Virus record (IMG/VR): IMGVR_UViG_3300029337_000252
Location: 1 to 19,960 of that record
Source of the DNA: a virus
Lineage: Duplodnaviria > Heunggongvirae > Uroviricota > Caudoviricetes
Length of the DNA: 19,960 nucleotides
Direction: 5' to 3' (one strand)
The number at the start of each line of letters is the position of its first letter. The first letter of the stretch is position 1. A program made the position numbers and the translations under genes. Below are positions 989 to 19,460 of the stretch, piece after piece. Below the pieces are notes generated by a model. It had not been told where the DNA came from, searched no databases, and saw only the letters and a program-made list of their open reading frames with translations.

Positions 989-1639
989 TTAATTTGATTT
1001 ATTCGCATCCATCAGCGCTTTTAACTCCTCCGGCGTAAACGGTGGTTTGCGCCGGTGCAGCATCGCATGGCAATTAGGGCACACAGGAAGTAAATCATTA
1101 ACTGGATCCAGCTGGTAATCCTCTTTAATGGCTGAAAGCGGCACCAGGTGATGCATATGGATAAAACCCTCAGCGATATCGCCATAGATCTTCACCAGAT
1201 CAACGCCGCATACGTTGCACTGGCATCCGTGATGTTCGACTGCTTTCTCGCGAGCTTTTTTATCGCGTTCATAGCGGTTTACCGTCACCTTTATCGCCGC
1301 ACCTTCAACGTAGGTCCCCTGCGACGGCAACTCATCCGGGAACAGAACATCGGCTATGGGAGCCGCAGCGGCTTTATCCTGATGAATATGAAATCCCTGA
1401 TCTATAAGTAGCTTGACGCATTTAGATTTTATTCCGCCGGTGAAATCCGCAGGGGTAAATTGCGTCCCCGTCATCAATGTCGCTGCGATACCAGCAATCG
1501 CCTTCGAGGGGTAACGTCGGCCATGATATTCAATCTCATACAACCGTGCAGGCTGGAACTGATGAGTTTCTCCCGCATCCCATAAATGAATAGCTTTGAT
1601 GATATACCGCCGAGGAAGATGATCGGGGAGTTTATTCAT
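989..1639 (-). CDS. HNH endonuclease-family protein with an N-terminal domain of unknown function, 216 aa
   Basis: C-terminal HNH signature (CQCNVCG ... HMHHLVPLS ... CPNCH). Convergent with nanS, 7-bp gap. N-terminal about 120 aa not recognised. Confidence 0.75.
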   Translation of the reverse strand: MNKLPDHLPRRYIIKAIHLWDAGETHQFQPARLYEIEYHGRRYPSKAIAGIAATLMTGTQFTPADFTGGIKSKCVKLLIDQGFHIHQDKAAAAPIADVLFPDELPSQGTYVEGAAIKVTVNRYERDKKAREKAVEHHGCQCNVCGVDLVKIYGDIAEGFIHMHHLVPLSAIKEDYQLDPVNDLLPVCPNCHAMLHRRKPPFTPEELKALMDANKSN

Positions 1640-2203: not shown

Positions 2204-2405
2204 ACAATTTCAGCCTTGTAGCCTTTCAAGGGTTTTGTGTGGGTACAAACATTATCGAATCGGGATATAGCCGCAGCTGTAGCTGTATCCACATCAGTAA
2301 GTTGATGTAGGTTGACTTAGGTTGAGCGAAAAATAGCGAAAAGCCTTGTGTGGCGCGGATTTCAGTCATAAAAAAAACGTCCGTTGACGTCTATTGATGT
2401 TCCGA

Positions 2406-2453
2406 TGGTGCGAAGGTGCGAAGGTGCGAAGGTGCGAAGGCCGGACTCAAACA
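2406..2453. other. attL-like core: inverted, degenerate copy of a tRNA-Leu (leuX-type) 3' end with a 4x tandem GTGCGAAG expansion
   Basis: Reverse complement reads GAGTCCGGC(CTTCGCAC)x4 CA, close to the leuX 3' end (..GAGTCCGGCCTTCGGCACCA) recalled from memory. No intact tRNA gene is present. Confidence 0.55.
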
Positions 2454-2642
2454 TCAAAATAAGTTAATGATAAAAAACAAATAATAAAACACAACAATGA
2501 AATATGCCCCCTTTTGTGCCCCCACTGTTTTTCTGACCAATCTATTTTCAGCCCATCAATAAATCGGAAAGTTAAATCATTTTTAATCAGTAAGTTTGGA
2601 TCCGTAGCTCGGATCCAAACCAGTGCATCTTTTATCCACATA

Positions 2643-2936
2643 AAAAATTTTTTTTCGAAAGAACTGTTCACACTGTTCACCTTTCTGTTTTCTCCTTTTA
2701 TTTCAGAGTGATAGGTGGTGAATAATGGGTGAAGGGTGAACATTCGATTCTTCACCTCCGGCATTCTGCCGGTGTGACTCATACCGGTGATTAATCCCCC
2801 GTACTGAAATCACTCAGGAAGAAAAAAGTTTTTTTTGATTTGATTGTTCACACTGTTCACCTTTCGTTTTTCTCTTTTAATTTCAGTATGATAACGGGTG
2901 AATATACGGTGAAGGGTGAACAGTGGATTGTTCACC
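2643..2936. repeat. crr-like cis replication region: two ~114-bp direct repeats (period 180 bp) carrying TGTTCACC/GGTGAACA octamers
   Basis: Units about 2643-2756 and 2823-2936 are near-identical (A6-T8 tract, TGTTCACACTGTTCACC, GGTGAAGGGTGAACA, TTCACC). Lies immediately 3' of alpha, as crr does in P4. Confidence 0.7.
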
Positions 2937-2953
2937 TGCGGGGGATATCGGGA

Positions 2954-2979
2954 TAAAAAAAGACCGGCAGATGCCGGTC
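2954..2979 (-). terminator. Rho-independent terminator downstream of alpha
   Basis: 7-bp GC-rich stem (GACCGGC / GCCGGTC), 4-nt loop, followed on the minus strand by a U7 tract; 17 nt past the alpha stop codon. Confidence 0.6.
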
Positions 2980-2995
2980 AGGTGGGTCATGAGGG

Positions 2996-5329
2996 TCAGG
3001 TTGTCGCAGGGTCGTCACATTTTGGCAGCCAGTCGCCGTAGCTTTCCTCTTTCAGCGTCAGGTTGGTCTGTATCCCCTGTTTGGTATGGCGCTTCTCGTA
3101 ATTCAGTCCGTATTCCTTCAGCATCACCGGCAGCCCCAGCCCGAACATTTTCAGACTGAGTACATTCCGGTAGCCGTTTGCCTCCATGTAGGCCAGATAG
3201 GCGTGATAGAGGTATTTACGGTAATTACGCGGGATGATACTGGCGTTCCCCATATACATGCCGCTGGTCTGCGGCAGGGTTTCCAGATAGCCGATAAAAT
3301 CAAACGTCGGGTCGGCATCCCGTTTGATGTTCAGCGCCTCGTCTGAGTTCTGCTGGGACTGAAGCAGTGACCGGGCGAGCATCGGGTCGCTGAACTTCTG
3401 CATCAGGTGACGCACGATGACCGCCAGCTCGCGGGTGATTTTGTCCTTAAGCTGCGGGTCGCGCTCCTGCGGGGCTATCTGTTCCGGGAAGTGAATAATC
3501 ACCCGCCGGCGTGACACGCCGCCGCTGCGGTCGGTGAAGCGCATCGGGTTATTGTTCACGGCCAGAATCACCGCCGGGATGTGCGTGGAGTATGCATCCC
3601 GGTATTTCGGGTCAACGGACACCGCATCGCCGCCGGTGATGGCCTTGAGTCCGGCACCGTCGCCGCTCCATTTTTCCTGGTCCGGCAGGCGTATCAGTGA
3701 GAAGCCAGTTAACGCGGCACGTTCACGCGGGGATTCCAGCGTCTCAATGGTGGCCGACGTGGCGTTATCTTCCCCGGCCAGCAGGGTGGCTATTTCGGCC
3801 ATGATACTTTTGCCGCTGCCGCCGGGACCGGTCACCTCCAGAAAGAGCTGCCAGTCGTAGCGGTTTGCCAGCACCATAAACAGTGCGGCCAGAATCACGT
3901 CGCGTTTTTCCGCACGGCCACCGGCGGCACGGTCAAGCCAGCGCCAGAACGCGGGGGCGTGGGTTTCCAGCGTTTCCCCTTCCACCGGCGGGGTGAAATC
4001 CACATCACACAGGGTGCGCATCCAGTGTGACGGACTGTGCGGGTGGAACGTGCCGTTCTGCGTGTCGAGCACGCCGTTACGAAAGCCAATCAGGCGGCGG
4101 GAGGGGGCTTCCTGCTGCGGAATAATCAGCTTCAGGGTGTCCACCACGGAGGCCACCTTCCCGGAGGAGAACGGCGCGCGCAGACGCTGAAACAGCCCGG
4201 CCACATCCCGGGCAAAGTCCTGTGGCGGCAGCACCTTCCAGACACCATTTTCATAGCGGGACAGAAGCTGGCCGTTGGCATCGACCGCGAGCGCCTCGCC
4301 GTAATGCTCATAGATACGCATGGCCTTTTCACTGGTACTCATGGCGGAAAACTCCGCTTCGCTCATGGTGTCGAACGGGCTTTCAGCCGGTGGCCGGATG
4401 GCATCGTAAATGGCCTTACGGGTGGCTTCCCTGCCGTACTGCGTGAAGGCATCATTCCAGTCACCGAAGACCGGCGGCAGGGCAACAACACCTTCACACG
4501 CATCTGCGGCTGCGGCGGCTTTTTTCTGGCCGTCACCGCTGAGGTCACGGTCTGCGGCAAGGACAATCTGACAGGCCGGATGCTTCTGCCGGGCAAGGCT
4601 GGCCAGAGAAAGGAGGTTCACGGAAGAAAGCGCCACCATCACCGTTTCACCGGTCAGGTGATGTACGGTAAGTGCGGTCGCGTATCCCTCCGCTATCCAC
4701 AGACGTTTTCCGGCCTGATTCTGTCCTTCAAGGATGTGACAGGTGCCCCTGACCTGCCCGCCTTTCAGGGTGCGCTTACGGCCGTCAGCGCTGATTAACT
4801 GAAGGTTAACAAGTTCGCCGCTGTCGTCATACAGTGGCACCACAAGGTCACCGGCGCGCCAGCTCACGCCACCGGCTCTGTGTGTGCCGGTCAGCATCCG
4901 GCATTCCCGGCCGGGAAAGCCCTTGCGGGTCAGGTAGGCGTTACCGGTTCCGGTACGGGTTTTCGCCATCAGGGTTTGTGCCAGTGCGGCGGCGTTCTTC
5001 CGGGCAGCGTCTGTTTCAGCACCGGCGGCGGCCGTCACTGCCGGGTCAGCCGGGGGCAGGCTGCCGGTCACGGCAGCCACCTTTGTGGCCGCGTCGGACG
5101 GGGAGACACCAAACACCTTTTCAACCAGTTTCAGGCCGTCACCGGCACCACACTGATTGCAGTACCAGGTGCCGCGCCCCTCCCTGTCATCAAAACGGAA
5201 GCGGTCACTCCCGCCACAGACCGGACAGGGCTGATGACGGTTTTTCAGCACCTGAATCCCCAGCGCCGGGAGGATACGCGGCCAGTGGCCGAGCGCATGG
5301 CTGACGGTGGCGGTTACGTTCATTTTCAT
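2996..5329 (-). CDS. alpha: P4 alpha-type primase/helicase, 777 aa
   Basis: N-terminal zinc-binding primase motifs (CPVCGG ... WYCNQCG), central TOPRIM-like region, C-terminal Walker A (GPGGSGKS) of a D5/SF3-type helicase. Length equals P4 alpha. Confidence 0.95.
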   Translation of the reverse strand: MKMNVTATVSHALGHWPRILPALGIQVLKNRHQPCPVCGGSDRFRFDDREGRGTWYCNQCGAGDGLKLVEKVFGVSPSDAATKVAAVTGSLPPADPAVTAAAGAETDAARKNAAALAQTLMAKTRTGTGNAYLTRKGFPGRECRMLTGTHRAGGVSWRAGDLVVPLYDDSGELVNLQLISADGRKRTLKGGQVRGTCHILEGQNQAGKRLWIAEGYATALTVHHLTGETVMVALSSVNLLSLASLARQKHPACQIVLAADRDLSGDGQKKAAAAADACEGVVALPPVFGDWNDAFTQYGREATRKAIYDAIRPPAESPFDTMSEAEFSAMSTSEKAMRIYEHYGEALAVDANGQLLSRYENGVWKVLPPQDFARDVAGLFQRLRAPFSSGKVASVVDTLKLIIPQQEAPSRRLIGFRNGVLDTQNGTFHPHSPSHWMRTLCDVDFTPPVEGETLETHAPAFWRWLDRAAGGRAEKRDVILAALFMVLANRYDWQLFLEVTGPGGSGKSIMAEIATLLAGEDNATSATIETLESPRERAALTGFSLIRLPDQEKWSGDGAGLKAITGGDAVSVDPKYRDAYSTHIPAVILAVNNNPMRFTDRSGGVSRRRVIIHFPEQIAPQERDPQLKDKITRELAVIVRHLMQKFSDPMLARSLLQSQQNSDEALNIKRDADPTFDFIGYLETLPQTSGMYMGNASIIPRNYRKYLYHAYLAYMEANGYRNVLSLKMFGLGLPVMLKEYGLNYEKRHTKQGIQTNLTLKEESYGDWLPKCDDPATT

Positions 5330-5343
5330 GGTGTTGTTCTCCT

Positions 5344-5664
5344 TCAGTGCAGTACCGGCGCTTTTATGTGACGGGCACAGAGTTCATCCATCACAACCAG
5401 CCCGAGAAAGGACAGCGACGGCGCGGCCTTCAGGGGGCCGGATTCCATTAAATCTTCCAGCAGGGCACAGGCTATCTGACGCCCTTTTTCCTCACCGTGC
5501 TGGCGCAGATAAAAGCCTTCCAGCTCAGCGGCGATGGCCGCCTCCAGTGATTCAAGGGTGAGATGCGGGTAGCGGTGCTGACGTTCGCACACGGTCAGCC
5601 AGGCACAGGCGACAGCGCGACGGTAAAGGGCAGCGCGTAAGACGGGCGGTAAGGGTGTTTTCAT
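5344..5664 (-). CDS. Hypothetical protein, 106 aa (P4-like early operon)
   Basis: ORF in operon context between orf151 and alpha, 14 nt upstream of alpha. No motif recognised. Confidence 0.55.
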
Positions 5665-5799
5665 TTGCTTTCCTCCCTGTGACAGATGACTGCATTCCGT
5701 GCCGGTTGCATTAACTGATAAGGCATATCTGCGTCTCCTGAAGACGTGCGTATCCCTGCGCGAATACGCACATTTAATTTTTCGGGTGTCGTTTTTTAA

Positions 5800-6255
5800 T
5801 TACAGATAATTGCGGTAACTGTTATCCGGGGTGATTTCCGGGTCAGGCTCCGTGCGGGGAATTTCCCGCCATTCCCGCGCCACCGGTGCTGCCCGGCTGA
5901 CCGGAACAGGGTCCTGCGGGTAAATATCCAGATATTTCTCACGCCATTTCTGTAATTCCGGGTCTCCGGCCATTTCTTTCAGTACCGCATGCCGGTTTAC
6001 GGGGCTGCGTTTAAACAGGTCAGGACGGTCACAGGTAAATTCCCGCAGAAAACGCCCCAGCGGGATGTCTGTGGTGCGCCCGTCAGCGAGGATACGCACA
6101 AGGATACTGAATTTACGGCGGTACGGGTTCCAGACAATGTCCGGGCAGCGGTACGGCATTTCCCACGGAATACCGTCTTCCAGAATGCCGACCACGGCCA
6201 CATCGGGAAAACCGGCAGAACGGTAAATCTCACCGGGCTGGGGAAAATCAAACAT
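5800..6255 (-). CDS. P4 orf151-like protein, 151 aa
   Basis: Size and position (between epsilon and alpha) match P4 orf151; start overlaps the stop of the upstream gene. Confidence 0.65.
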   Translation of the reverse strand: MFDFPQPGEIYRSAGFPDVAVVGILEDGIPWEMPYRCPDIVWNPYRRKFSILVRILADGRTTDIPLGRFLREFTCDRPDLFKRSPVNRHAVLKEMAGDPELQKWREKYLDIYPQDPVPVSRAAPVAREWREIPRTEPDPEITPDNSYRNYL

Positions 6256-6535
6256 GCGTCCTGTCTCCCCGGTCTTTCTGCTGGGCGAGAAAATCGCGGC
6301 ACAGGCCTTTGGCTTTCAGCTCATTCAGCACAAAATCAATATCTTCATTCAGGTAGCTGAAAATATGCGGAATGTAGAGCTGATGCAGGCCGGAGAGTTC
6401 ACGGTGAATCAAATCACCCCCAACAAACCGGGATACGGCGCTGGCGCGGTTGAGCTTATGGTAAGCCTCAATGCTGAGGTGTTCACGGGCGTCATGACGC
6501 GCTGAGACGGTCTGAGGGGCTTTTTTATTACGCAC
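6248..6535 (-). CDS. Epsilon-like protein, 95 aa, proposed GTG start
   Basis: The ORF track gives 190 aa (to 6820), but the first 95 residues are low-complexity. A GTG with a GGAGG Shine-Dalgarno 5 nt upstream gives a 95-aa product, the size I recall for P4 epsilon. Confidence 0.5.
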
Positions 6536-6725
6536 GGGACACCTCCACCACCGGCAGACGGGCAGCAAGGGAGAGCACATAGTCACGGACAAGGGAACGG
6601 CGGGCACTGCGTTCATCACCGGCGACGGTGCGAAGCATACAGATACGGGGATGACGGTCTGTGCGACGGACAGCCGCAAACACAAAGACAAATTCAGGGT
6701 GTGAGGGGGTAAGGGTTGTAGCCAT
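6528..6725 (-). CDS. Hypothetical small protein, 65 aa
   Basis: ATG preceded by AGGAGG (8-nt spacer); overlaps the proposed epsilon start. Replaces the 214-aa track ORF 6528-7172. Confidence 0.5.
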
Positions 6726-6728
6726 GAT

Positions 6729-6847
6729 GGCAGCCTCCTGTGAATAGCAAATAACGCTATCGCCGGAGTTTCCACGCTCGATGGCGATAGCCCAGACGGG
6801 GGTGGAAATACCGGCTTCACAGGATACCGGCCAGCCCGGAGGCTGCC
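6729..6847 (-). promoter_or_regulatory. Structured leader upstream of orf66: hairpin plus U-tract and an anti-SD segment (candidate immunity/attenuation region, cI-like)
   Basis: 9-bp stem hairpin (6766-6774 / 6793-6801) followed on the minus strand by a U-rich run; 10-nt GGCAGCCUCC (6838-6847) exactly complementary to the orf66 SD region GGAGGCUGCC (6729-6738). Confidence 0.35.
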
Positions 6848-7123
6848 CCGCCTGAGCTACCATTGACTCTGCGGCATAATGAGCGGACGCGGGCAGGATG
6901 CACGGAATGCCATCTGCACGACTGACCACACACCACACCATAATCTGGCGCTCTGTGGCGTTGATTGCGACACAAAAAAAGACGCATGGCGCGTCATATG
7001 TCGCCTGTGAATTGCTCGGGTTTCCACGCCCGGCTGCCGATTTTGCGGCAGCGGAAAAACTATATCCGCAAATGCCGGAAAAAGGCAAGCCAGAAAAAGG
7101 GACTTTTTGCAGAGCGGGCATCA

Positions 7124-7390
7124 TCATGCGTCGTACCCCCGTTTGCGTCCGGCAATGCGCCCGGCCATCCATGCGGTGACTTCAGAGTGCAGCCAGGCCA
7201 CATTTTTACCGCCAAGACTCACCTGCGGCGGAAATTCCCCCTTACGGATGAGTTCATAGATGGTCGAGCGTGACAGGCCGCACAGGTGCATCACTTCCGG
7301 AAGACGTAAAAAACGCTCCTGTGTGATGTCCGGCAGCGGCATCAGTGGCGTCACAGGGGCGGGAGACGGGGAAGAAAAAACAGCTTGCAT
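7124..7390 (-). CDS. vis: Vis/AlpA-family DNA-binding regulator/excisionase, 88 aa
   Basis: AlpA-like helix-turn-helix core ([27 protein letters not shown]); size matches P4 orf88 (vis) as I recall it. Confidence 0.7.
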
Positions 7391-7493
7391 CGGGCTACCT
7401 CGTTAATGTCCATACAGCACCGGATAAGTCCGTCCGGCTTCGGGTAGCGCTTTATTTTGTGAATATTTTCAGCAGACGCAACAGGGGGGATTT

Positions 7494-7511
7494 GTTCCGG
7501 CAGCCTTACAA
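7494..7511. promoter_or_regulatory. TGT-N12-ACA dyad: candidate Delta/Ogr activator site of a leftward late promoter (P_LL-like)
   Basis: TGTTCCGGCAGCCTTACA, about 105-120 bp upstream of the vis start on the minus strand; same dyad form as P2/P4 late promoters. Confidence 0.4.
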
Positions 7512-7669
7512 TGCTTGTGTATTTTTTGTTCATCTCCACTTAAAGTCATTTAAAGCCACTTAAAGCAATTCGTAATTTTTATAGTGAAATACAAATCGTT
7601 TTTTCTTATTCATTCCCGGCGAATTAATAAAAACAAACAGTAATAAACAGCACAAAAAGCCCATCAACG

Positions 7670-7773
7670 GGTGAACAGTGGTGAACAGACGGTGAACAGT
7701 CATTACTGCGATTGTTCACCCTTTAACTTACTGTATTACTTATCTTTTTTCTTATGGTGAACAGAGGTGAACA
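7670..7773. repeat. ori-like iteron cluster: six TGTTCACC octamers (alpha-binding type I repeats)
   Basis: GGTGAACA at 7670, 7680, 7691, 7756 and 7766; TGTTCACC at 7713. Sits between the divergent vis and sid operons, about 4.7 kb from the crr-like repeats. Confidence 0.7.
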
Positions 7774-7853
7774 GTAAAATATAAAAAAAATAAACAGTAA
7801 GCCGTTTTTTCCAGCGACCTTTTCCTGGCTTGCCGGTCTGAGGATGAGTCTCC

Positions 7854-7871
7854 TGTGTCAGGGCTGGCACA
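7854..7871. promoter_or_regulatory. TGT-N12-ACA dyad: candidate Delta/Ogr activator site of the rightward late promoter (P_sid-like)
   Basis: TGTGTCAGGGCTGGCACA centred about 80 bp upstream of the sid ATG. Confidence 0.5.
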
Positions 7872-7943
7872 TCTGCAATGCGTCGTGTTGCTGTCCGGTG
7901 TACGTCACAATTTTCTTAACCTGAAGTGACGAGGAGCCGGAAA

Positions 7944-8678
7944 ATGTCTGACCACACTATCCCTGAATATCTGCAACCCGCACTGGCACAACTGGAAAAG
8001 GCCAGAGCCGCCCATCTTGAGAACGCCCGCCTGATGGATGAGACCGTCACGGCCATTGAACGGGCAGAGCAGGAAAAAAATGCGCTGGCGCAGGCCGACG
8101 GAAACGACGCTGACGACTGGCGCACGGCCTTTCGTGCAGCCGGTGGTGTCCTGAGCGACGAGCTGAAACAGCGCCACATTGAGCGCGTGGCACGCCGGGA
8201 GCTGGTACAGGAATATGACAATCTGGCCGTGGTGCTGAATTTTGAACGCGAACGCCTGAAAGGGGCGTGTGACAGCACGGCCACCGCCTACCGGAAGGCA
8301 CATCATCACCTTCTGAGTCTGTATGCAGAGCATGAGCTGGAACACGCCCTGAATGAAACCTGTGAGGCGCTTGTCCGGGCAATGCATCTGAGCATTCTGG
8401 TACAGGAAAATCCGCTCGCCAACACCACCGGCCATCAGGGCTACGTCGCACCGGAAAAGGCTGTCATGCAGCAGGTGAAATCATCGCTGGAACAGAAAAT
8501 TAAACAGATGCAAATCAGCCTCACCGGCGAGCCGGTTCTCCGGCTGACCGGACTGTCAGCGGCAACACTTCCTCACATGGATTATGAGGTGGCAGGCACA
8601 CCGGCACAGCGCAAGGTGTGGCAGGACAAAATAGACCAGCAGGGAGCAGTGCTTAAGGCCAGAGGACTGCTGTCATGA
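7944..8678 (+). CDS. sid: Sid, capsid size determination (external scaffold) protein, 244 aa
   Basis: Start moved to the ATG at 7944 (GAGGAG SD upstream) rather than the track's 7926; length then matches P4 Sid. First gene of a sid-delta-psu operon. Confidence 0.9.
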   Translation: MSDHTIPEYLQPALAQLEKARAAHLENARLMDETVTAIERAEQEKNALAQADGNDADDWRTAFRAAGGVLSDELKQRHIERVARRELVQEYDNLAVVLNFERERLKGACDSTATAYRKAHHHLLSLYAEHELEHALNETCEALVRAMHLSILVQENPLANTTGHQGYVAPEKAVMQQVKSSLEQKIKQMQISLTGEPVLRLTGLSAATLPHMDYEVAGTPAQRKVWQDKIDQQGAVLKARGLLS

Positions 8679-9175
8679 TTTACTGCCCGTCGTGTGGACA
8701 TGTTGCTCACACCCGCCGCGCACATTTCATGGACGATGGCACCAAGATAATGATTGCACAGTGCCGGAATATTTATTGCTCTGCGACATTTGAAGCGAGT
8801 GAAAGCTTTTTCTCTGACAGTAAAGATTCAGGAATGGAATACATTTCAGGCAAACAGAGATACCGCGATTCACTGACGTCAGCCTCCGGCAGTATGAAAC
8901 GCCCGAAAAGAATGCTTGTTACCGGATATTGTTGTCGGAGATGTAAAGGCCTTGCGCTGTCAAGAACATCGCGGCGTCTGTCTCAGGAAGTCACCGAGCG
9001 TTTTTATGTGTGCACGGATCCGGGCTGTGGTCTGGTGTTTAAAACGCTTCAGACCATCAACCGTTTCATTGTCCGCCCGGTCACGCCGGACGAACTGGCA
9101 GAAAGCCTGCATGAAAAACAGGAACTGCCGCCAGTACGCTTAAAAACACAATCATATTCGCTGCGTCTGGAATGA
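8675..9175 (+). CDS. delta: Delta, late-gene transcriptional activator (tandem Ogr-like zinc fingers), 166 aa
   Basis: Two Ogr-type zinc-finger halves (CPSCGH..C..C and CRRCKG..C..C); ATGA overlap with the sid stop. Confidence 0.9.
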   Translation: MIYCPSCGHVAHTRRAHFMDDGTKIMIAQCRNIYCSATFEASESFFSDSKDSGMEYISGKQRYRDSLTSASGSMKRPKRMLVTGYCCRRCKGLALSRTSRRLSQEVTERFYVCTDPGCGLVFKTLQTINRFIVRPVTPDELAESLHEKQELPPVRLKTQSYSLRLE

Positions 9176-9248
9176 GGGCTGCCGGTTAACACCGGCCGTC
9201 GCCGCACACCGTATTTTTATTCTTCAGCATGATGAGAAAGAGATAACG

Positions 9249-9821
9249 ATGGAAAGCACAGCCTTACAGCAGGCCTTTGACACCTGTCAGAATAACAAAG
9301 CAGCATGGCTGCAACGCAAAAATGAGCTGGCAGCGGCCGAACAGGAATATCTGCGGCTTCTGTCAGGAGAAGGCAGAAACGTCAGTCGCCTGGACGAATT
9401 ACGCAATATTATCGAAGTCAGAAAATGGCAGGTGAATCAGGCCGCCGGTCGTTATATTCGTTCGCATGAAGCCGTTCAGCACATCAGCATCCGCGACCGG
9501 CTGAATGATTTTATGCAGCAGCACGGCACAGCACTGGCGGCGGCACTGGCACCGGAGCTGATGGGCTACAGTGAGCTGACGGCCATTGCCCGAAACTGTG
9601 CCATACAGCGTGCCACAGATGCCCTGCGTGAAGCCCTTCTGTCCTGGCTTGCGAAGGGTGAAAAAATTAATTATTCCGCACAGGATAGCGACATTTTAAC
9701 GACCATCGGATTCAGGCCTGACGTGGCTTCGGTGGATGACAGCCGTGAAAAATTCACCCCTGCGCAGAACATGATTTTTTCGCGTAAAAGTGCGCAACTG
9801 GCATCACGTCAGTCAGTGTAA
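9249..9821 (+). CDS. psu: Psu, polarity suppression (anti-Rho, capsid decoration) protein, 190 aa
   Basis: Length and position (last gene of the sid operon, just before cos) match P4 Psu. Confidence 0.9.
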   Translation: MESTALQQAFDTCQNNKAAWLQRKNELAAAEQEYLRLLSGEGRNVSRLDELRNIIEVRKWQVNQAAGRYIRSHEAVQHISIRDRLNDFMQQHGTALAAALAPELMGYSELTAIARNCAIQRATDALREALLSWLAKGEKINYSAQDSDILTTIGFRPDVASVDDSREKFTPAQNMIFSRKSAQLASRQSV

Positions 9822-9856
9822 AATTCCCCGAAAATCCGCCCGTTTTTACTGAAAAA

Positions 9857-9895
9857 AGCCATGCATCGATAAGGTGCATGGCTTTGCATGCGTTT
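9857..9895 (+). terminator. Terminator-like hairpin after psu
   Basis: 9-bp stem (AGCCATGCA / TGCATGGCT) with a T-rich tail; A-run upstream, so possibly bidirectional. Confidence 0.45.
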
Positions 9896-9985
9896 TCCTG
9901 CCTCATTTTCTGCAAACCGCGCCATTCCCGGCGCGGTCTGAGCGTGTCAGTGCAACTGCATTAAAACCGCCCCGCAAAGCGGGCG

Positions 9986-10004
9986 GGCGAGGCGGGGAAA
10001 GCAC
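9986..10004. other. cos site (19-nt P2/P4-type cohesive end)
   Basis: GGCGAGGCGGGGAAAGCAC matches the P2/P4 cohesive end as I recall it; flanked by a GC-rich dyad (CCGCCCCGC AAA GCGGGCGG). Confidence 0.8.
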
Positions 10005-10238
10005 TGCGCGCGCAATCGAAAATTATGTGTTTGATAATTAAAACATTCTATATGCAGAAACATCACTGCCTATGGATAGCTTCTACTGCCGAACACACAC
10101 TAATCATCAAAATATCGCACTAAAGCACCCCAATATTATTAAAAGAAAAATACCAAGCAGAATTATCCCTTTCCATATTGAACGTTCGTTGATCTTATAG
10201 TGATAAGTTGCTAATCTCCATTAAAAAAGGAGATAACA

Positions 10239-11165
10239 ATGCACGCTTTAGCACCGTATCTTTTCCGCTGCTACAATCCGAACGCAGCCAAAGAACAACG
10301 TTATTCAGCACTGAGTAACATCAGAGAACATGATTTACTTGATATACTCGATGAATTTATTAAGCAGTATAATGAAGAATATATCCTTTCTGAAGAAACC
10401 AAACAAGTTTTTCGTTTTAATGAGATTACACGCGATAACAACAATCGAGAAATATATGGATGGTTCGAGTCTGGATATTACGGAACAAAGACCGACATAA
10501 TAAACATTGAAACTGGCGATGTAGACTTCGAAAAGACAAAAAACAATGCTGAAATAATTAGATATTACATACATTTTTATATTCCTAGAGATGTAAATGA
10601 AGGCATGGCGTTTTTACATACCTATAGAGGTGATGGTATAAAAACTCTTTTTATGAGATTGTTTTCAGATTATTTCAAGAGGGTTACCAACTTAGTGATT
10701 CAAATGAACCCTCTGGCGTATGATAAAGCGATTGAAAAATGGATGAATGCCATTACCAAAGAAATCAAGGTAACTAAATTCCATGGCATTACAGATGTAG
10801 CTGAACAAGCCAAAAAGCTAGGCCATAACGAGCAAGAATTAATTATCAAACCGCCTCGAAATGCAGGACTTGGAAGACTTCGAGACTATTTCTCCAGAGG
10901 CTCGGAGCAATATCAACTCGTTGAAGTCCTTAAAGAATATGGAGAAACAGTAAAAACAGTTGTTGAATTAGATAATGGCAGAAAAAGAACTTTTCATATT
11001 GGAACAACAGCAAGGGGAGCTGTATGTGAAATTTTATTTGATGAAGAACAAGTTGTTTTTTATGATGGCATGCCGGAAATAGCATCACTAAATAATTTTG
11101 TTGATGTTATTATCATGGAATATATACAGTTGTTATATCGTGGTGTTACTATAAGGAGAGCGTAA
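10239..11165 (+). CDS. Hypothetical soluble protein, 308 aa (cargo gene A, candidate sensor of a defence module)
   Basis: AAGGAGA SD 7 nt upstream; about 30% GC by eye; no Walker A, HNH, TOPRIM, TIR or other motif I can recognise. Confidence 0.8.
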   Translation: MHALAPYLFRCYNPNAAKEQRYSALSNIREHDLLDILDEFIKQYNEEYILSEETKQVFRFNEITRDNNNREIYGWFESGYYGTKTDIINIETGDVDFEKTKNNAEIIRYYIHFYIPRDVNEGMAFLHTYRGDGIKTLFMRLFSDYFKRVTNLVIQMNPLAYDKAIEKWMNAITKEIKVTKFHGITDVAEQAKKLGHNEQELIIKPPRNAGLGRLRDYFSRGSEQYQLVEVLKEYGETVKTVVELDNGRKRTFHIGTTARGAVCEILFDEEQVVFYDGMPEIASLNNFVDVIIMEYIQLLYRGVTIRRA

Positions 11166-11749
11166 TGAGTTCAAAGATAAATATATGCGAAGTTCTTATA
11201 GGCCACTTCAGAACTTTAAAAAATGCTGACACTAATAAGATCAGTTTATGGGATATATTTACATTCATAATACTACCATTTATTATTGCTGCCGCATTCT
11301 CACTCCTTGGAAGTGGTATAACAAAAGATTTAATATCATTATTAGTTAATTTCAGTGCAATACTAACAGCATTACTGCTTAGCGTTCTTGTTTTAGTATA
11401 TGATCAAGAATCAAAAATAAGACAAAGAAAAGATATTGATACATTCTATGAATCAAAGAAAGCATTACTCACTGAACTTTATTATAACATTTGTTATTCA
11501 ATTTTATGTGGAGTTTTGTTAGTCGTGTTGTGTTTTATAGTATCACTGTTTCCTGTCAATCAATCAGGATTCTTTTACGGCAAAACACATGAATATTATG
11601 TCAGCATAATAAACACAACTCTAAAATTAAATGTGTTATACTATTTTTTATGCCCACTCATAATATATGTTTGCGTACATTTAATTTTGAATATCATTAT
11701 GATTGTTAAAAGAATGCACGCACTCTTAACTCTTGATGTGAATGATTAG
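11165..11749 (+). CDS. Hypothetical 4-helix membrane protein, 194 aa (cargo gene B, candidate membrane effector)
   Basis: TAATG stop/start overlap with gene A. Four hydrophobic segments (about aa 27-51, 55-79, 104-129, 155-181); about 30% GC. Confidence 0.8.
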   Translation: MSSKINICEVLIGHFRTLKNADTNKISLWDIFTFIILPFIIAAAFSLLGSGITKDLISLLVNFSAILTALLLSVLVLVYDQESKIRQRKDIDTFYESKKALLTELYYNICYSILCGVLLVVLCFIVSLFPVNQSGFFYGKTHEYYVSIINTTLKLNVLYYFLCPLIIYVCVHLILNIIMIVKRMHALLTLDVND

Positions 11750-11759
11750 CTTTTAAATT

Positions 11760-11797
11760 AACCTAGCCAGCGAGACTACAAAAATTCTGGCTAGGTT
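11760..11797. terminator. Bidirectional terminator hairpin between cargo operon and int
   Basis: Perfect 11-bp stem (AACCTAGCCAG / CTGGCTAGGTT), 16-nt loop, A/T-rich flanks, between convergent stop codons. Confidence 0.55.
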
Positions 11798-11803
11798 AAA
11801 ATA

Positions 11804-12191
11804 CTATTTAAGTTGTCTAGCAAAATCATATGGTGTAATACTTTCTTTCTTATTTCTATCTAAATAATCTGCCCACCACTGTATCATTAAACGCCTTTCG
11901 TCTAAATGCTCAGATGTATGAATATAAGCAGCACGTACATTATTACGTTCTGAGTGACTTAGCTGACGTTCAATCGCATCATCACTCCATAAGCCTGATT
12001 CCCCTAATGCTCCACGCGCCATCGTTCTAAACCCGTGCCCGCAAACTTCGGTTTTCGTGTCATAGCCCATCGCACGCAATGCGCTATTTACTGTATTTTC
12101 ACTCATAACCTTAGTTGCGTCATGATCCCCCGGAAAAAGCAGTTCTTTATCACCACTAATCTGCTTTAACTGGTTTAGCTGCGTATTTTCA
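11804..12191 (-). pseudogene. int: P4-type tyrosine integrase, 3' fragment (C-terminal about 125 aa), N-terminal part removed at the IS junction
   Basis: Carries the C-terminal catalytic box (HGFRTMARGALGE ... RQLSHSERNNVRAAYIH). The reading frame runs into the IS left end at about 12192, and the first codons of the track ORF are IS-derived. Confidence 0.85.
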
Positions 12192-12372
12192 TGAAAGGAG
12201 ATCACTCAATAACTTCCATCGAGATCGGGTAATAACATTTGAACAGATCGCTGAATAACATCGATGGAGATCACTTTTGACTCATTTTGTTATTCAGTGA
12301 TCTCCATCAATGTTATTGGAACTTCACAGGTGTGTTGATCTGTATCTTTTGCCATTCCGGTAAAGGATACCT

Positions 12373-13914
12373 ATGCCAACAGTTCCAATTTCTATGAGAA
12401 AACTTAAAGAAATTCTTAGGCTTAAATACGGTGTTGGACTCAGCCATCGACAAATTGGTCGTAGTCTTGCAATCTCCCCTTCCGTTGTATCCAGATATGC
12501 TAATCGGGCGGCTCAACTTGGCATAAAGCAGTGGCCCTTACCTACAGGATGGGATGATACAAAACTAAAACATGCGTTCCTTCAGACCCAGGTTAAGATG
12601 AAGAAGCACTCTCTGCCTGACTGGGCTACAGTACACCGGGAACTGCGTAATAAATGCGTGACGCTGCAGCTACTCTGGGAAGAATACTGTGAGCGTAATC
12701 CAGGCGGTTTTTACAGCTATAACCATTACTGCCGGATGTACCGTGAATGGCTCAAAACCACTTCACCATCAATGCGTCAGGTACATAAAGCTGGCGAAAA
12801 ACTTTTCGTTGATTACTGTGGACCTACCGTTGGCGTTACCGACCCTGAGACCGGAGAAATAAGAACTGCTCAGGTCATCGTAGCTGTTCTCGGGGCATCA
12901 AGTTACACATGGGCAGAGGCCACCTGGTCTCAGCAGCTTGAAGACTGGGTGATGAGTCATGTTCGCTGCTTCCAGTGGTTGGGTGGCGTTCCTGAACTTG
13001 TTGTTCCGGACAATCTGAAAAGCGCCACATCCAGGGCATGTAAGTATGATCCTGACGTTAACCCTACCTACCAGCAGATGCTTGAGCATTATAATGTCGC
13101 AGTTTTGCCTGCGCGGCCACGTAAACCGAAAGATAAAGCCAAAGCTGAAGTTGGCGTTCAGGTTGTTGAACGCTGGATCATGGCCCGAATCAGGCATGAG
13201 ATCTTCTACAGCCTTGCATCGCTTAATCAGCGCATTCGGGAGTTGCTGGAAAGACTGAATAACAAAATAATGCAGAAGTTGGGTTATTCACGTGCAGAAC
13301 TCTTCATCCAGCTTGATAAACCCGCACTGAAGCCTCTTCCTGAAGCCAGTTACAGTTACACCCTGGTGAAGAAAGTCAGAGTTCATGCCGATTACCACGT
13401 GGAAATCGACAAACATTACTACTCGGTTCCATGTTCGCTGTTAGGCCAGCAACTGGAAGCATGGATCTCCGGAGAACTGGTAAGACTCTTCAATCAGGGG
13501 CAGGAGGTTGCTGTGCACCCGCGCAAGCGTACTTATGGCTACAGTACCCGCAACGAGCACATGCCTGAAGCTCATCGACAGCATGCCACCTGGACGCCAG
13601 AGCGTCTTCTGGAATGGGCGGGGCACATAGGCAGTGAAACTCATAGTTATGTGCTTCATATACTGAACTCTCGTCCACATCCGGAACAAAGCTATCGCTT
13701 CTGCCTTGGACTCCTGAACCTTCATAAAAAATACAGTAAAGCCAGACTTAATGCAGCATGTGCAAGAGCTCTGAAAACAAAGGTATGGCGTCTGTCAGGT
13801 ATTAAATCGATCCTGGAAAAAGGTCTGGATAAACAACCTGTTCAGGATCCAAAACCAGATCTGTTATCCACGATGGAACACGAAAACGTACGCGGCAGTG
13901 AGTATTACCACTGA
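12373..13914 (+). CDS. istA: IS21-family transposase IstA, 513 aa
   Basis: N-terminal helix-turn-helix, large size, followed 12 nt later by an IstB-type ATPase gene. Confidence 0.9.
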   Translation: MPTVPISMRKLKEILRLKYGVGLSHRQIGRSLAISPSVVSRYANRAAQLGIKQWPLPTGWDDTKLKHAFLQTQVKMKKHSLPDWATVHRELRNKCVTLQLLWEEYCERNPGGFYSYNHYCRMYREWLKTTSPSMRQVHKAGEKLFVDYCGPTVGVTDPETGEIRTAQVIVAVLGASSYTWAEATWSQQLEDWVMSHVRCFQWLGGVPELVVPDNLKSATSRACKYDPDVNPTYQQMLEHYNVAVLPARPRKPKDKAKAEVGVQVVERWIMARIRHEIFYSLASLNQRIRELLERLNNKIMQKLGYSRAELFIQLDKPALKPLPEASYSYTLVKKVRVHADYHVEIDKHYYSVPCSLLGQQLEAWISGELVRLFNQGQEVAVHPRKRTYGYSTRNEHMPEAHRQHATWTPERLLEWAGHIGSETHSYVLHILNSRPHPEQSYRFCLGLLNLHKKYSKARLNAACARALKTKVWRLSGIKSILEKGLDKQPVQDPKPDLLSTMEHENVRGSEYYH

Positions 13915-13925
13915 TACGGGATCCA

Positions 13926-14675
13926 ATGATGAATCATCTTTACGAACAACTGACCGCACTTAAACTCACCGGCTTCCGTGATGCGCTTAAAAAGCAACTT
14001 GCTCAGCCGGGCACATACCAGGAGCTGGGCTTCGAAGAACGCCTGTCATTACTGACAGCAGAAGAACTAACCTGCCGTGAAAACAGGAAGGCAGAGCGTC
14101 TGATCAAACATGCACGGTTCAGACTTAATGCTGAGTTATCAAAGCTGGATTATCGTAACAATAGAGGGCTGGACAGGGCCTTCATCCGTTCACTCAGTCA
14201 GGGAAACTGGTTAACCCTGAAACAAAATATTTTACTGACCGGGGCCACCGGCAGCGGTAAAACGTTCCTGGCATGTGCACTTGGTCATAATGCCTGCCGA
14301 CAGGGATACAAGGTCTACTATTATCGCCTTAAAGCGCTGATGGAACAGTGCTATCAGGGGCATGCTGATGGAAGATACAGCAAACTTTTGACCAGGCTGA
14401 ATAATAGCGATCTGCTGCTTCTGGATGACTGGGGGCTGGAACCTCTCTCATCAGAACAGCGTAGCGACCTGCTGGAAATAGTGGATCTGATGTACCAACG
14501 AGGCTCAATCATCGTAGTGAGCCAGTTGCCGGTGGAAAACTGGTACAAAATGATCGGAGACTCCACACATGCGGATGCCATCCTAGATCGACTGGTTCAT
14601 GGCAGTATCAAGATCGAACTTAAAGGAGAATCAATGCGGAAAATACAATCTCCGTTGACCGAAGGAGATCAGTGA
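13926..14675 (+). CDS. istB: IS21-family helper ATPase IstB, 249 aa
   Basis: Walker A (GATGSGKTFLACALG) and Walker B (LLLLDDWG) of the DnaC/IstB AAA+ family. Confidence 0.9.
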   Translation: MMNHLYEQLTALKLTGFRDALKKQLAQPGTYQELGFEERLSLLTAEELTCRENRKAERLIKHARFRLNAELSKLDYRNNRGLDRAFIRSLSQGNWLTLKQNILLTGATGSGKTFLACALGHNACRQGYKVYYYRLKALMEQCYQGHADGRYSKLLTRLNNSDLLLLDDWGLEPLSSEQRSDLLEIVDLMYQRGSIIVVSQLPVENWYKMIGDSTHADAILDRLVHGSIKIELKGESMRKIQSPLTEGDQ

Positions 14676-14745
14676 AGGTAATTTAAAAACGGTTCTGTGA
14701 AAGTGACACGAACCGATCTCCATCGATGTTACTCACCGATCTCCT

Positions 14746-15183
14746 TCACGGTAATACGCAAAAAGTTAGCTGGATTCTTAGGCCATTAGAAATTCCAACA
14801 TCTTTAGAGGCTTTAAAACTCGTAATAATGGAATCGTCAATTTTAATTCCGTCTCGACAGATGACCGAAATAATTTGCTTCTGGTCACGCCAGCTTTCCA
14901 GAGTGTCGATGAAGTTTTCCACCAGCTTATTATCTCTTGAGATGAGGATACTACCGGATTCACCAACCACAACCACACCACTGATTGAAATAGTTCTGGG
15001 TGAACGCATTACATTATCTGTGACAGCCTGCCCTGATTGCATATTTTGAGTGGTAACCATCATAGGGCTATCAAATTCCATGTTCTCAGTAGCTGATAGT
15101 GACAAGAAATTATCTGGTTGGCCTTGTAGATGGAAGTAAACACCATCTTTGCCACTGTAACGAAGCTGATTAGTGTAAATCAT
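14746..15183 (-). CDS. Phage tail component downstream of the tape measure gene, truncated at its 3' end by the IS (145 aa as read)
   Basis: Start set at the ATG with an AAGGAGA SD (track ORF begins 7 codons earlier at TTG). Its stop codon is supplied by the last 3 nt of the IS right end. Confidence 0.5.
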
Positions 15184-15341
15184 TAAATTCTCCTTTGATT
15201 TCAAAGGCTTAGTGTATTTTAAGTATTTTTAACTAATCCTTTGATATATAAGTGTTTTCTCTGTTAAGCGTGAGCTACGTGAAAAATAATTTTTTAGTGT
15301 GGGTATTAACTTTGCTTTATTCACGTAGCATTCGACTATTA

Positions 15342-17381: not shown

Positions 17382-17465
17382 TATTCATATTCACCTCATA
17401 CAAAAAAGGGGAGGACCAACCAATTAAGGTTAATCTCTCCCCGTATTTACCCAACCAATTCTTTT

Positions 17466-17678
17466 TTAATGTCGGACAAGATAATGTAGTTCCGTTTCAC
17501 CTATAATTTGAGCATCAGAAGGAATACGGTCAATACACCACTTTGGAATCTTGCGTGTTTTTGGTTTGTGTGAGGTGATGTAATGACGGTTATTCTTAAT
17601 TCGTAGCTTTTGTCTATTTGGTTGTAGCTGGAGTCTTTCGCAAACAGACCGAATAGTCTCTAAACGTTCTTCAAACAT
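17466..17678 (-). CDS. Hypothetical small basic protein, 70 aa
   Basis: GAGGTGA SD upstream; same strand and operon as the tail genes. Confidence 0.5.
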   Translation of the reverse strand: MFEERLETIRSVCERLQLQPNRQKLRIKNNRHYITSHKPKTRKIPKWCIDRIPSDAQIIGETELHYLVRH

Positions 17679-17701
17679 TAATCACCTCACATATTGCATA
17701 A

Positions 17702-18418
17702 TCAAACAGCCTTGCTAAATTCTCGTGGAACACTCAGAAAATCATTGAAGCTGATAATCTGTGCCAACTCTTGACGGTACTCCTTAGCCAGCGCTTGATG
17801 GTCACTAATCAGCTTAGCCAGTCTTGATTTCAGCAAATTAATCTCATTTTCTCTTGCTTTCATCAGTTTCTCTTTGGCAATTTCTTCAAGCTCAGCTTGT
17901 GATTTATCAGCAACAATTAGAGACAGTCGATGTGGCGCTCTAATGGCTCTTTCTGTACGAACAACTCTTTGACCTTCTGGTAAATCTGCAATCACTTTAC
18001 CAATCTCTACAGGGTCATACCCCCAACCGTCACGGCCTAGTCGAGAGAAATAAGCATAAGGATTGGTTTGAAGCTCCATCAAAATAGCCATTTCGTCAAT
18101 TTCGTCTTCAAGCTTGGACTGAATTTTCTCGTAAACACTTCTCATTGCTTCTTGAGAGTCTTTAATAGCTTGGAAATATCGGCGTTGTAGCTTCAACTTC
18201 AAATCAAGTTCACACCGTTCGTTCATAGAAAAATCAATTTCAACTCTTGGAATCTCGAGTGGTTCTGGTGGAATATATGGACCTTTATTTACTTCGTGTG
18301 ATTCCCGCCAAGCTCTATCAAAAGATTCACGCAAACTTAATTCGTGAATATCAAGTGCACTTGGTCTGTTCTCAACAATCATTTCGTGTTCATTACGAAT
18401 AGACATTATTTTTTTCAC
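17702..18418 (-). CDS. Hypothetical protein with C-terminal coiled-coil, 238 aa
   Basis: GAGGTGA SD 6 nt upstream; heptad-like, charged C-terminal segment (ELEEIAKEKLMKARENEINLLKSRLAKL...). No motif recognised. Confidence 0.7.
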   Translation of the reverse strand: MKKIMSIRNEHEMIVENRPSALDIHELSLRESFDRAWRESHEVNKGPYIPPEPLEIPRVEIDFSMNERCELDLKLKLQRRYFQAIKDSQEAMRSVYEKIQSKLEDEIDEMAILMELQTNPYAYFSRLGRDGWGYDPVEIGKVIADLPEGQRVVRTERAIRAPHRLSLIVADKSQAELEEIAKEKLMKARENEINLLKSRLAKLISDHQALAKEYRQELAQIISFNDFLSVPREFSKAV

Positions 18419-18978
18419 CTCATTGGTTTTTGTTTGTTTTTCAATTTATAGAAGCACACTCAGCAATCAGAGGTGAAGAGTCTGACTGAACAAGAACCTG
18501 CCAAGTGTGCTTTTAAAAACTGAAAAGCCCTAAACATAGGTGATTCGGATATTCATGGAATCATCCTTATCTGTGAAGGGCTTTGGAGGTTTGCTTATAA
18601 CGTTAACGAAGTTTCAGGAAAACTTTCTTTAAAAGCTCTGTTTAAAAACTCTTAAAGAAACGCCCTAATCATGAGTCAGGGCAAAGCTGTAAAGGATTCA
18701 ATGAATGAACAAAGATTTTTGATATGGCCTATTTAGTGTGGGCTAAATAAGCCATGACGAAAAGCATTGCACCTTTCAGAATAACTATCCCTAGATGTAG
18801 ATGGAATTGTTGAAAGAAATAAGAGAGAATTGCTCTCCCATAATTAAAATTATGCCATGCTTAAGGTTATTTGTCAACAGCTTTTTAACAGATTGGTAAC
18901 ATCAATTTTTATTTACTGTGTTACCTACCCAGCAACCAACAAATAAGCCAAGCAGCGTCCAAGCAATTATTAAACCCA

Positions 18979-19302: not shown

Positions 19303-19460
19303 TTTTAAAATCTCCTTTTTTACCAGACCTCCTCAATCGCTCTGTAACGAGCTAAATAGTCTTTTTCAGGGGTAGCCTGTACAGTGGTATTACCCACCCT
19401 AAAATAGGGTAGTTTTTTTTGCGTTAGAATGCGATTGAGAGCGTCTGAGAAGCTGTTTTT

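Follow-up and report, generated by a model that had tools for sequence, protein, structure and literature searches.

The P4 prophage and its attachment site

The window analysed here is a stretch of 19,960 nucleotides in which positions 2428-9985 align with positions 4075-11624 of satellite phage P4 (NC_001609) at 98.6% nucleotide identity over 7.56 kb (98.56% over 7560 aligned bases). An earlier note, made from the letters alone, had described a P4-family satellite prophage in canonical prophage order and had proposed alignment with P4 as a check; this alignment returns the same gene order and places the element closer to P4 than had been supposed. Nine genes are full length, free of frameshifts and stops, and share 97.8-100% protein identity with their P4 counterparts (tblastn). 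The gene sizes given in the note, 777 amino acids for alpha, 88 for vis, 244 for sid, 166 for delta and 190 for psu, are all correct, and frameshifts are absent from alpha, sid, delta and psu, which are complete at 98.2-100% protein identity. Gene order and content are those of P4 (NC_001609 / X51522), which runs from attP and crr through alpha, orf106, orf151, epsilon, the CI RNA region, vis, ori, sid, delta and psu to cos. Its sequence identifies the element as a P4-lineage prophage that sits at the Escherichia coli tRNA-Leu gene leuX. P4-like satellites have been reported from E. coli at a frequency of about 44% of isolates (PMC9122126). As a P4 prophage, 98.6% identical to the type element, it is a routine find; the element is of an ordinary and already known kind, with a private insertion sequence (IS) lesion.

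The left end of the prophage is an attL site (2406-2450, minus strand), a 3' fragment of leuX in which the counterpart of the P4 attP core lies at 2431-2450, as established by comparison with the intact leuX of a related locus and with P4 attP. It had been recognised earlier as an attL-like tRNA-Leu fragment, and rightly so. The 8-bp unit GGTGCGAA stands there in four tandem copies, an expansion that P4 attP does not have. To the left lie a gene for an HNH endonuclease and a fragment of a restriction gene.

The related locus belongs to a P4-like element found at leuX of E. coli OkiPb01716 (NZ_AP042701) and in six other complete genomes. This sister element carries the same cargo, has in common with the window the left flank (nanS and the HNH endonuclease gene) and attL, and is about 97.8% identical in its core genes. 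It bears an ISEc12 copy of its own between alpha and orf106, flanked by a 5-bp duplication.

Replication module

The leftmost gene of the prophage encodes the 777-aa replication protein alpha, a primase-helicase that also binds the origin (2996-5329, minus strand), intact and 98.8% identical to P4 alpha over its full length (tblastn). It is followed by orf106, a DUF5375 gene (5344-5664, minus strand; 100% identity), and orf151 (5800-6255, minus strand; 98.7% identity), both intact and full length. The cis-required replication region crr, located from the P4 annotation at 2642-2941 on the plus strand, is 98.3% identical to that of P4 and consists of a 120-bp sequence directly repeated, at 2642-2761 and 2822-2941, with iterons of the TGTTCACC type in both copies. 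The ori region, also placed from the P4 annotation (7439-7943, 97.1% identity), includes the divergent vis-sid promoter region and contains type-1 iterons, GGTGAACA, at 7670-7773 and type-2 repeats near 7536-7570. The iteron TGTTCACC occurs 12 times against an expectation of 0.66, and all occurrences but one fall in crr or ori. The crr-like repeats and ori-like iterons of the earlier description are both genuine. According to published P4 biology, alpha would replicate the element from ori and crr in the presence of a P2-type helper.

Immunity and regulation

To the right of orf151 lie epsilon (6248-6535, minus strand), whose intact 95-aa product, the helper-prophage derepression protein, is 100% identical to that of P4, and an intact open reading frame annotated in P4 as 'cI gene product' (6528-6944, minus strand; 97.8% identity), which corresponds to the kil/eta region and encodes an Ash-family domain (Pfam Phage_ASH, 1.3e-26). 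The vis gene follows (7124-7390, minus strand), encoding an AlpA-type excisionase and regulator of 88 aa, intact and 98.9% identical to that of P4.

What had been noticed as a structured leader between epsilon and vis proved to be the P4 immunity region. The CI immunity RNA, a member of the C4 antisense RNA family, maps to 6780-6867 on the minus strand (Rfam RF01695, 76.6 bits where the gathering score is 45), and the leader itself, which combines the seqA target of CI RNA with a terminator hairpin of the isrK / c4-a1b1 type, to 6975-7065 on the same strand (Rfam RF01394, 74.9 bits; RF03163, 50.2 bits); the leader, too, exceeds the gathering scores of Rfam. Alignment with P4 and with the sister element reveals that the seqB of this CI RNA contains a variant triplet, TTTCCAC. 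The immunity triplet in seqA, seqB and seqC is unlike that of P4, but the changes compensate one another, so that seqB still pairs perfectly with both seqA and seqC. The seqB difference predicts that immunity to P4 would be reduced or absent. A third variant of the seqA/seqB/seqC triplet is found in the sister element, in which the region from the leader to the CI RNA has partly diverged. Because the seqA, seqB and seqC changes relative to P4 compensate one another, and because the sister holds a third variant, the alignment indicates that selection has maintained the RNA pairing. Immunity-specificity variants of this sort are already known, as in phiR73. If the element behaves as published for P4, CI RNA processed from the leader transcript would pair with seqA and seqC; this pairing would terminate transcription and leave the left operon (epsilon, orf151, orf106 and alpha) silent. 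Epsilon would derepress a helper prophage.

Capsid genes and cos

To the right of ori, three genes lie on the plus strand. These are sid (7944-8678), for the 244-aa external scaffold that downsizes the P2 capsid (99.6% identity); delta (8675-9175), for a 166-aa Ogr/Delta zinc-finger activator of helper late genes (98.2%); and psu (9249-9821), for a 190-aa capsid decoration protein and Rho inhibitor (100%). All three are intact. The cos site that the earlier note had placed after psu is there, at 9940-10012 on the plus strand, an extent over which P2-family phages also match, with its 19-nt cohesive end GGCGAGGCGGGGAAAGCAC at 9986-10004. From psu to the cohesive end the sequence is 100% identical to P4, an identity that covers the 19-nt end and 183 bp upstream of it. 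By analogy with P4, delta would activate the late genes of the helper, Sid and Psu would build and stabilise a small capsid, and the helper terminase would cut at cos.

Cargo cassette between cos and int

Homology to P4 ends about 7 nt past the cohesive end. The earlier note held that only the cargo slot and the integrase differ from P4, and for the cargo slot this is accurate: where P4 has the non-essential gop-beta-cII region, the element carries a different two-gene cassette between cos and int, conserved and unannotated. Its genes occupy 10239-11165 and 11165-11749 on the plus strand, the start of the second overlapping the stop of the first. Gene 1 encodes a 308-aa soluble protein from a large unannotated family (1350 clusters at 50% identity), and gene 2 a 194-aa protein in which hydropathy analysis identifies four hydrophobic segments. 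A partner of the gene-2 type is conserved beside gene-1 homologues in Pseudomonas, Aeromonas and Vibrio, and homologous cassettes are carried by P4 satellites, prophages and small Vibrio islands.

Sequence comparisons of the two proteins against Pfam, PADLOC, NCBIfam and PDB sequences gave no matches, and those against PHROGs returned families of unknown function only; for the family of the 308-aa protein as a whole, no Pfam, NCBIfam or PADLOC-2023 model covers it. A literature search by the RefSeq accessions of the cargo proteins retrieved nothing, and a promoter and terminator scan of the region gave results at chance level, which are uninformative. The predicted fold of the 308-aa protein is closest to lambda RexA and RdgC, and the Foldseek search of the PDB returned TM-scores of at most 0.24.

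The likeness to lambda RexA/RexB lies in architecture. Both are two-gene cassettes on a temperate mobile element in which the gene for a soluble protein precedes that for a small protein with four hydrophobic segments, and the adjacent small polytopic membrane partner typical of RexAB is present here. The secondary-structure order predicted for the 308-aa protein also appears to resemble that described for RexA, namely an N-terminal beta-sheet domain, then a middle domain with four strands and as many helices, and a helix at the C-terminus. Sequence similarity, in contrast, is undetectable even when profiles are compared with sequences: hhalign profile comparison of the cargo families with RexA and RexB gave a probability below 1% for both proteins, and the Rex models of Pfam and PADLOC did not match. 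The membrane partners also differ in length, RexB having 144 aa against 194 aa here. On the strength of these predictions, the two genes may form a phage exclusion system of the Rex kind. That the cargo (10239-11749) constitutes an undescribed anti-phage system of Rex-like architecture is put forward tentatively, as a proposal that we consider somewhat more likely to fail than to hold. The hotspot cargo would then be a candidate relative of the classical RexAB exclusion system, unrecognisable by sequence.

Kiwa offers a second comparison. This system pairs a four-transmembrane protein, KwaA, with KwaB, a soluble protein of about 310 aa that binds DNA, and in this respect is similar to the cargo pair, but its gene order is reversed. 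Other strains have Kiwa in their P4 hotspot (bioRxiv 10.1101/2023.02.26.530102). The KwaA and KwaB profiles gave no significant match to the cargo; when ten distant family members were compared with Pfam and PADLOC, the only trace was one marginal KwaB match (E 0.017), on which we do not rely.

The integrase remnant and ISEc12

The order proposed earlier closed with an int gene, of which just a stump is present. The last 124 of the 419 codons of a P4-type tyrosine integrase lie at 11804-12179 on the minus strand; they match P4 Int residues 300-414 and are identical to the last 124 aa of the sister Int. The stump lacks the arm-binding and central domains as well as the beginning of the catalytic domain, so that a complete tyrosine integrase is not encoded. 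The open reading frame of 133 aa that runs on to position 12205 borrows its GTG start from inside the adjoining IS. Against Pfam the remnant matches nothing, Phage_integrase included, whereas the sister gene matches Arm-DNA-bind_3, Phage_int_M and Phage_integrase; against NCBIfam it scores 77 bits where the cutoff is 434.

The second half of the claim that cargo slot and integrase both depart from P4 did not survive. Element and P4 have the leuX-type integrase lineage in common, and an integrase of a different type is ruled out, as the full-length Int of the sister shares 97% identity with P4 Int across 410 aa. Only the 3' end of the gene has diverged, with 87.7% nucleotide identity to P4 in the window.

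The P4-derived DNA stops at an ISEc12 copy of 2581 bp (12180-14760, plus strand), a member of the IS21 family with TG...CA ends and 99.96% identity to the ISEc12 of OkiPb01716. Between its terminal inverted repeats, which end in TG...CA as in other IS21 elements, are istA (12373-13914, plus strand), encoding a 513-aa DDE transposase (Pfam rve and Mu-transpos_C_2), and istB (13926-14675, plus strand), encoding a 249-aa AAA+ helper (Pfam IstB_IS21, 3.9e-67). To its right the DNA is that of an unrelated prophage's tail module, with a truncated Dit-like baseplate gene and then a tape-measure gene. The 5-bp sequences flanking the IS are unequal, TTAGC on one side and AAAAG on the other, and there is no target-site duplication. 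Because these flanks differ, whereas ISEc12 in OkiPb01716 is bordered by a 5-bp duplication, they indicate that this copy joins two unrelated contexts.

In the sister element, where cargo and int 3' end are 99.8% identical to those of the window, int is complete (419 aa) and is followed by tRNA-Leu (leuX) and ahr. In contrast to P4 as well, the element has its int cut short by ISEc12 and is without attR. ARAGORN and pattern searches of the whole window found neither a tRNA gene, tRNA-Leu included, nor a second copy of the att core. The fragment at 2406-2450 is its only piece of tRNA-Leu, and the pair of attL and attR expected at the tRNA gene is reduced to attL.

A probably stranded satellite

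The best overall explanation, which we hold with high confidence, is that of a P4 prophage whose integrase is truncated, whose far att site is lost and which is probably stranded in consequence. As assembled, the 5' part of int, attR and leuX would have been replaced beyond ISEc12 by DNA of an unrelated prophage, most likely through recombination or intramolecular transposition involving ISEc12. Since only 124 of 419 int codons and no second att site are present, the element cannot encode its own Int and, as assembled, cannot excise; with a single att site and no Int it would fail to leave as a circle. As it stands, it is probably stranded in the chromosome. Such an anchored satellite would presumably still provide the host with immunity, helper interference and cargo while being self-mobile no longer.

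The alternative that survives best, although we consider it unlikely, is a simple ISEc12 insertion in int, with the remainder of the gene, attR and leuX still beyond it; the switch to a foreign prophage would then be an assembler artefact. ISEc12 is a multi-copy element in E. coli (median 2, with up to 14-18 matching places per genome), and the junction may be an assembly join across this repeated IS, a point on which the window by itself cannot discriminate. The two flanks lie far apart in reference genomes, leuX/nanS for one and tonB-yciI or yecD for the other, and neither ISEc12 junction was found among 5426 complete E. coli genomes, which thus lend the join no independent support. The sequence itself, however, bears no sign of a chimera, and real IS-mediated inversions and deletions produce just such unequal flanks. 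Even with an artefactual join the element would have no Int of its own, as int is interrupted after codon 295 from the N-terminus either way; another P4-type element could then excise it by providing Int in trans, as long as attR is in reality still next to it.

It is far less probable that the element is an old, decayed and cryptic remnant, comparable to the CP4-type P4-related elements of K-12 and by now a mere carrier of a gene cassette. The truncated integrase and the missing attR would suit such a remnant, as would the left flank with its HNH endonuclease gene and restriction-gene fragment, leuX being a site that often holds degraded islands. Against decay stand the nine undamaged genes near-identical to P4 at the protein level, an immunity RNA system that preserves its three-way compensatory covariation, and a cos that is P4 cos; the one lesion is a single IS event, private to this genome. 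Because all other genes are near-perfect, this lesion is recent.

The fully functional, self-mobile P4-like satellite of the earlier note is the least credible reading: the core genes other than the integrase gene, together with cos, ori, crr, attL and CI RNA, are indeed intact and near-identical to P4, but the part of Int N-terminal to the cut (arm-binding, central and catalytic) is gone and the window contains neither attR nor tRNA-Leu. Of the phrase "intact, recently functional", the first word is right for cos and for the genes of replication, immunity, helper manipulation and capsid remodelling, and fails for the integration and excision module, cut by ISEc12; given the recent lesion, the remainder is not wrong historically.

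The annotation is to be corrected accordingly, the element being scored as integrase-defective and probably immobile. The P4-like core set of SatelliteFinder comprises seven components, Int, Psu, Delta, Sid, AlpA/Vis, Epsilon/Ash and Alpha (PMC10085698). The psu-delta-sid block is present here, as are full-length AlpA/Vis, Epsilon and Alpha, and the element would score as Type B, lacking one core component, the integrase. The correction matters wherever 'intact' satellites are counted or mobilisable defence cargo is predicted, and the locus offers a clean natural case of one IS event that anchors a satellite with every other function preserved.

The core genes and cis-acting sites of the satellite

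Among phage records, the best megablast match of positions 2300-12400 of the window is phage P4 itself, the satellite phage of Escherichia coli (NC_001609). Direct comparison aligned P4 4075-11624 to window 2428-9985 with 98.56% identity over 7560 columns, and the pairwise alignment contains only two indels right of attL and before cos: a 9-bp insertion at 2984-2992, just past the alpha stop codon, and a single base in ori. Using tblastn, the P4 proteins were each recovered full length and unbroken, with the following protein identities to P4: alpha (777 aa, 98.8%), orf106 (100%), orf151 (98.7%), epsilon (100%), the ORF annotated 'cI' in P4 (97.8%), vis (88 aa, 98.9%), sid (244 aa, 99.6%), delta (166 aa, 98.2%) and psu (190 aa, 100%). 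The gene sizes, order and coordinates read from the sequence in an earlier note are therefore correct. P4-like satellites are defined by seven components (PMC10085698), six of which are intact here, the failing one being the integrase. The element is P4, a textbook element, of a lineage that public genomes already contain; it stands out only by a private insertion sequence (IS) lesion, a variant immunity triplet and an uncharacterised cargo.

At the left end of the prophage, a 3' fragment of tRNA-Leu (leuX) at 2406-2450 makes up one of its att sites (attL); within it, 2431-2450 corresponds to the attP core of P4. This fragment carries, at 2406-2440, a tandem 8-bp unit, GGTGCGAA, present in four copies in the window and in three in the P4-like element found at leuX of E. 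coli OkiPb01716 (NZ_AP042701), hereafter the sister element, whereas attP of P4 contains only one, 9-bp version, GGTGCCGAA. The unit is a copy-number-variable microrepeat within the att core region. Two 120-bp crr repeats follow at 2642-2761 and 2822-2941. Copies of the alpha-binding iteron TGTTCACC number 12 in the window, where 0.66 would be expected; five of them are in crr and six in ori. At 9986-10004 is the 19-nt cohesive end GGCGAGGCGGGGAAAGCAC, and the 183 bp separating it from psu are identical to P4. Homology to P4 ends about 7 nt past the cohesive end, where the variable cargo slot begins.

A variant immunity triplet

The 'structured leader' of the earlier note turned out to be the P4 immunity system. 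Rfam matched the CI RNA (family C4) at 6780-6867 with 76.6 bits and, at 6975-7065, the leader together with the hairpins of its target and terminator (isrK, 74.9 bits; c4-a1b1, 50.2 bits). Compared with P4, the seqA target reads GTGGAAA instead of GTGAGAA, the seqC target GTGGAA instead of GTGAGA, and seqB in the CI RNA TTTCCAC instead of TTCTCAC. These changes, AG to GA in seqA and seqC and CT to TC in seqB, fall at 6771-6772, 6805-6806 and 7023-7024 on the minus strand and are exactly compensatory. In the sister element the set is a third one, again self-consistent: both targets read GTAGGAA, and the CI RNA has TTCCTAC. Since the triplets differ among the three elements and each is internally matched, sequence comparison indicates selection for seqA/seqB/seqC pairing, and these near-identical satellites probably have distinct immunity specificities. 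Immunity specificity set by matched triplets is a principle described for P4 and phiR73.

An integrase interrupted by ISEc12

The sole integrase sequence in the window is equivalent to residues 300-414 of P4 Int (tblastn). An ORF at 11804-12205 resembles a small 'int', but its GTG start lies within an insertion sequence; the true integrase-derived part, 11804-12179, corresponds to the C-terminal 124 residues of the sister element's integrase (419 aa). Pfam recognized arm-binding, central and catalytic domains in the latter and none of the three in the remnant. The sister element shares with the window its left flank (nanS and an HNH endonuclease gene) and its cargo (99.8% identity), and continues with a complete int, tRNA-Leu and ahr, where the window has an int stump and no tRNA gene. 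The sister integrase and P4 Int share 97% identity over 410 residues, so the difference in integrase stated in the earlier note is not one of kind. At the nucleotide level, divergence from P4 is confined to the 3' end of int adjoining the cargo slot (87.7% identity at 11854-12177, against 98.6% for the remainder of the element), a pattern consistent with a cargo exchange by recombination whose boundary would lie inside the end of int.

The interruption is due to a complete ISEc12 of the IS21 family (12180-14760, 2581 bp), with istA (513 aa), istB (249 aa) and TG...CA ends, 99.96% identical to an annotated copy. It bridges the truncated P4 integrase and a truncated Dit-like baseplate gene (14761-15204, minus strand) of another prophage. 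Its 5-bp flanks, TTAGC and AAAAG, are unequal, unlike those of the ISEc12 copy located at another site of the sister genome, which form a 5-bp duplication. The junctions on both sides were absent from the 5426 complete E. coli genomes searched. On the window alone, two readings fit the arrangement. One is a genuine rearrangement, in which an IS-mediated inversion or deletion joined the int stump to a foreign prophage. ISEc12 is multi-copy in E. coli genomes, and the other reading, which we consider unlikely, is that the IS simply inserted into int and that an assembler joined its right side to the wrong sequence. Either way int is interrupted; what separates the readings is only the nearness of attR and therefore the possibility of an excision rescue by Int supplied in trans.

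The window was searched for a tRNA gene and for a second att core, and both were absent. With only a stump of int, the element is therefore without a functional integrase and, as assembled, without a second attachment site. The earlier description as intact and recently functional fails at the integrase, cut to 124 residues, and at the missing second att site. The element has all the determinants, nearly identical to those of P4, for immunity and replication, for derepressing and transactivating the helper, for capsid downsizing and for packaging recognition. By analogy with P4, the CI RNA would still be expressed and the prophage would stay repressed. Upon contact with a P2-type helper phage, epsilon, delta, sid and psu could still be expressed and alpha-dependent replication could fire in situ, and circle formation would be impossible without Int and a second att site. 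If P2 terminase requires such a circle as its substrate for packaging, transduction of the element is not expected. A freshly anchored satellite, neither functional nor decayed, is thus the description that fits it best.

The cargo cassette

The slot between cos and int is occupied by two overlapping genes of low G+C content (about 31-35%), at 10239-11165 and 11165-11749. The first encodes a soluble protein of 308 aa, the second a protein of 194 aa in which four segments are hydrophobic. Searches of Pfam, NCBIfam, PADLOC (2023) and PDB sequences returned no match for either product, and PHROGs only families of unknown function. The exact cassette was found in 7 of the 5426 complete E. coli genomes. 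The soluble protein belongs to a large family, with 91 close homologues across Gammaproteobacteria and, at an E no higher than 0.001, 1350 clusters at 50% identity. Three further contexts keep the membrane partner beside such homologues, with 46-49% identity. In a Pseudomonas prophage the pair adjoins an integrase, in Aeromonas its locus adjoins a P4-type primase, and in Vibrio it lies on a small island that also has serine recombinases and a DUF5906 primase.

The AlphaFold2 model of the 308-aa protein (pLDDT 81) gave no convincing Foldseek match in the PDB. Its predicted order of secondary-structure elements resembles that described for RexA: a sheet domain at the N-terminus, then a middle domain in which four strands are combined with four helices, and lastly a helix at the C-terminus. 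Sequence similarity of the cargo proteins to RexA or RexB was not detectable; the cassette is therefore called Rex-like in architecture and probably in fold, without being placed in the Rex family. Experiments have validated the P4 cos-int slot as a hotspot of defence systems, and most of the loci of unknown function tested from it were protective (PMC9122126; PMC13586616). This location makes an anti-phage role plausible for the cargo. That it constitutes an undescribed Rex-like exclusion system is a tentative proposal, which on balance we would not favour.

The flanking sequences

Right of ISEc12, 14761-19960 belongs to the tail module of an unrelated prophage-like element, on the minus strand, and holds a tape-measure gene (679 aa, 15342-17381, minus strand), several hypothetical genes and a small HNH endonuclease gene. 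This small element has serine recombinases on its flanks in other genomes, where its chromosomal site varies (near tonB-yciI or yecD). On the left, nanS (1-981) is followed by a 216-aa HNH endonuclease gene (989-1639, minus strand) with weak profile matches to type IV restriction enzymes, and by a fragment at about 1776-1925 to which a sister genome gives the annotation phosphorothioated-DNA-binding restriction endonuclease. Lying between nanS and attL, 989-1925 looks like what is left of an older defence island, external to the satellite.
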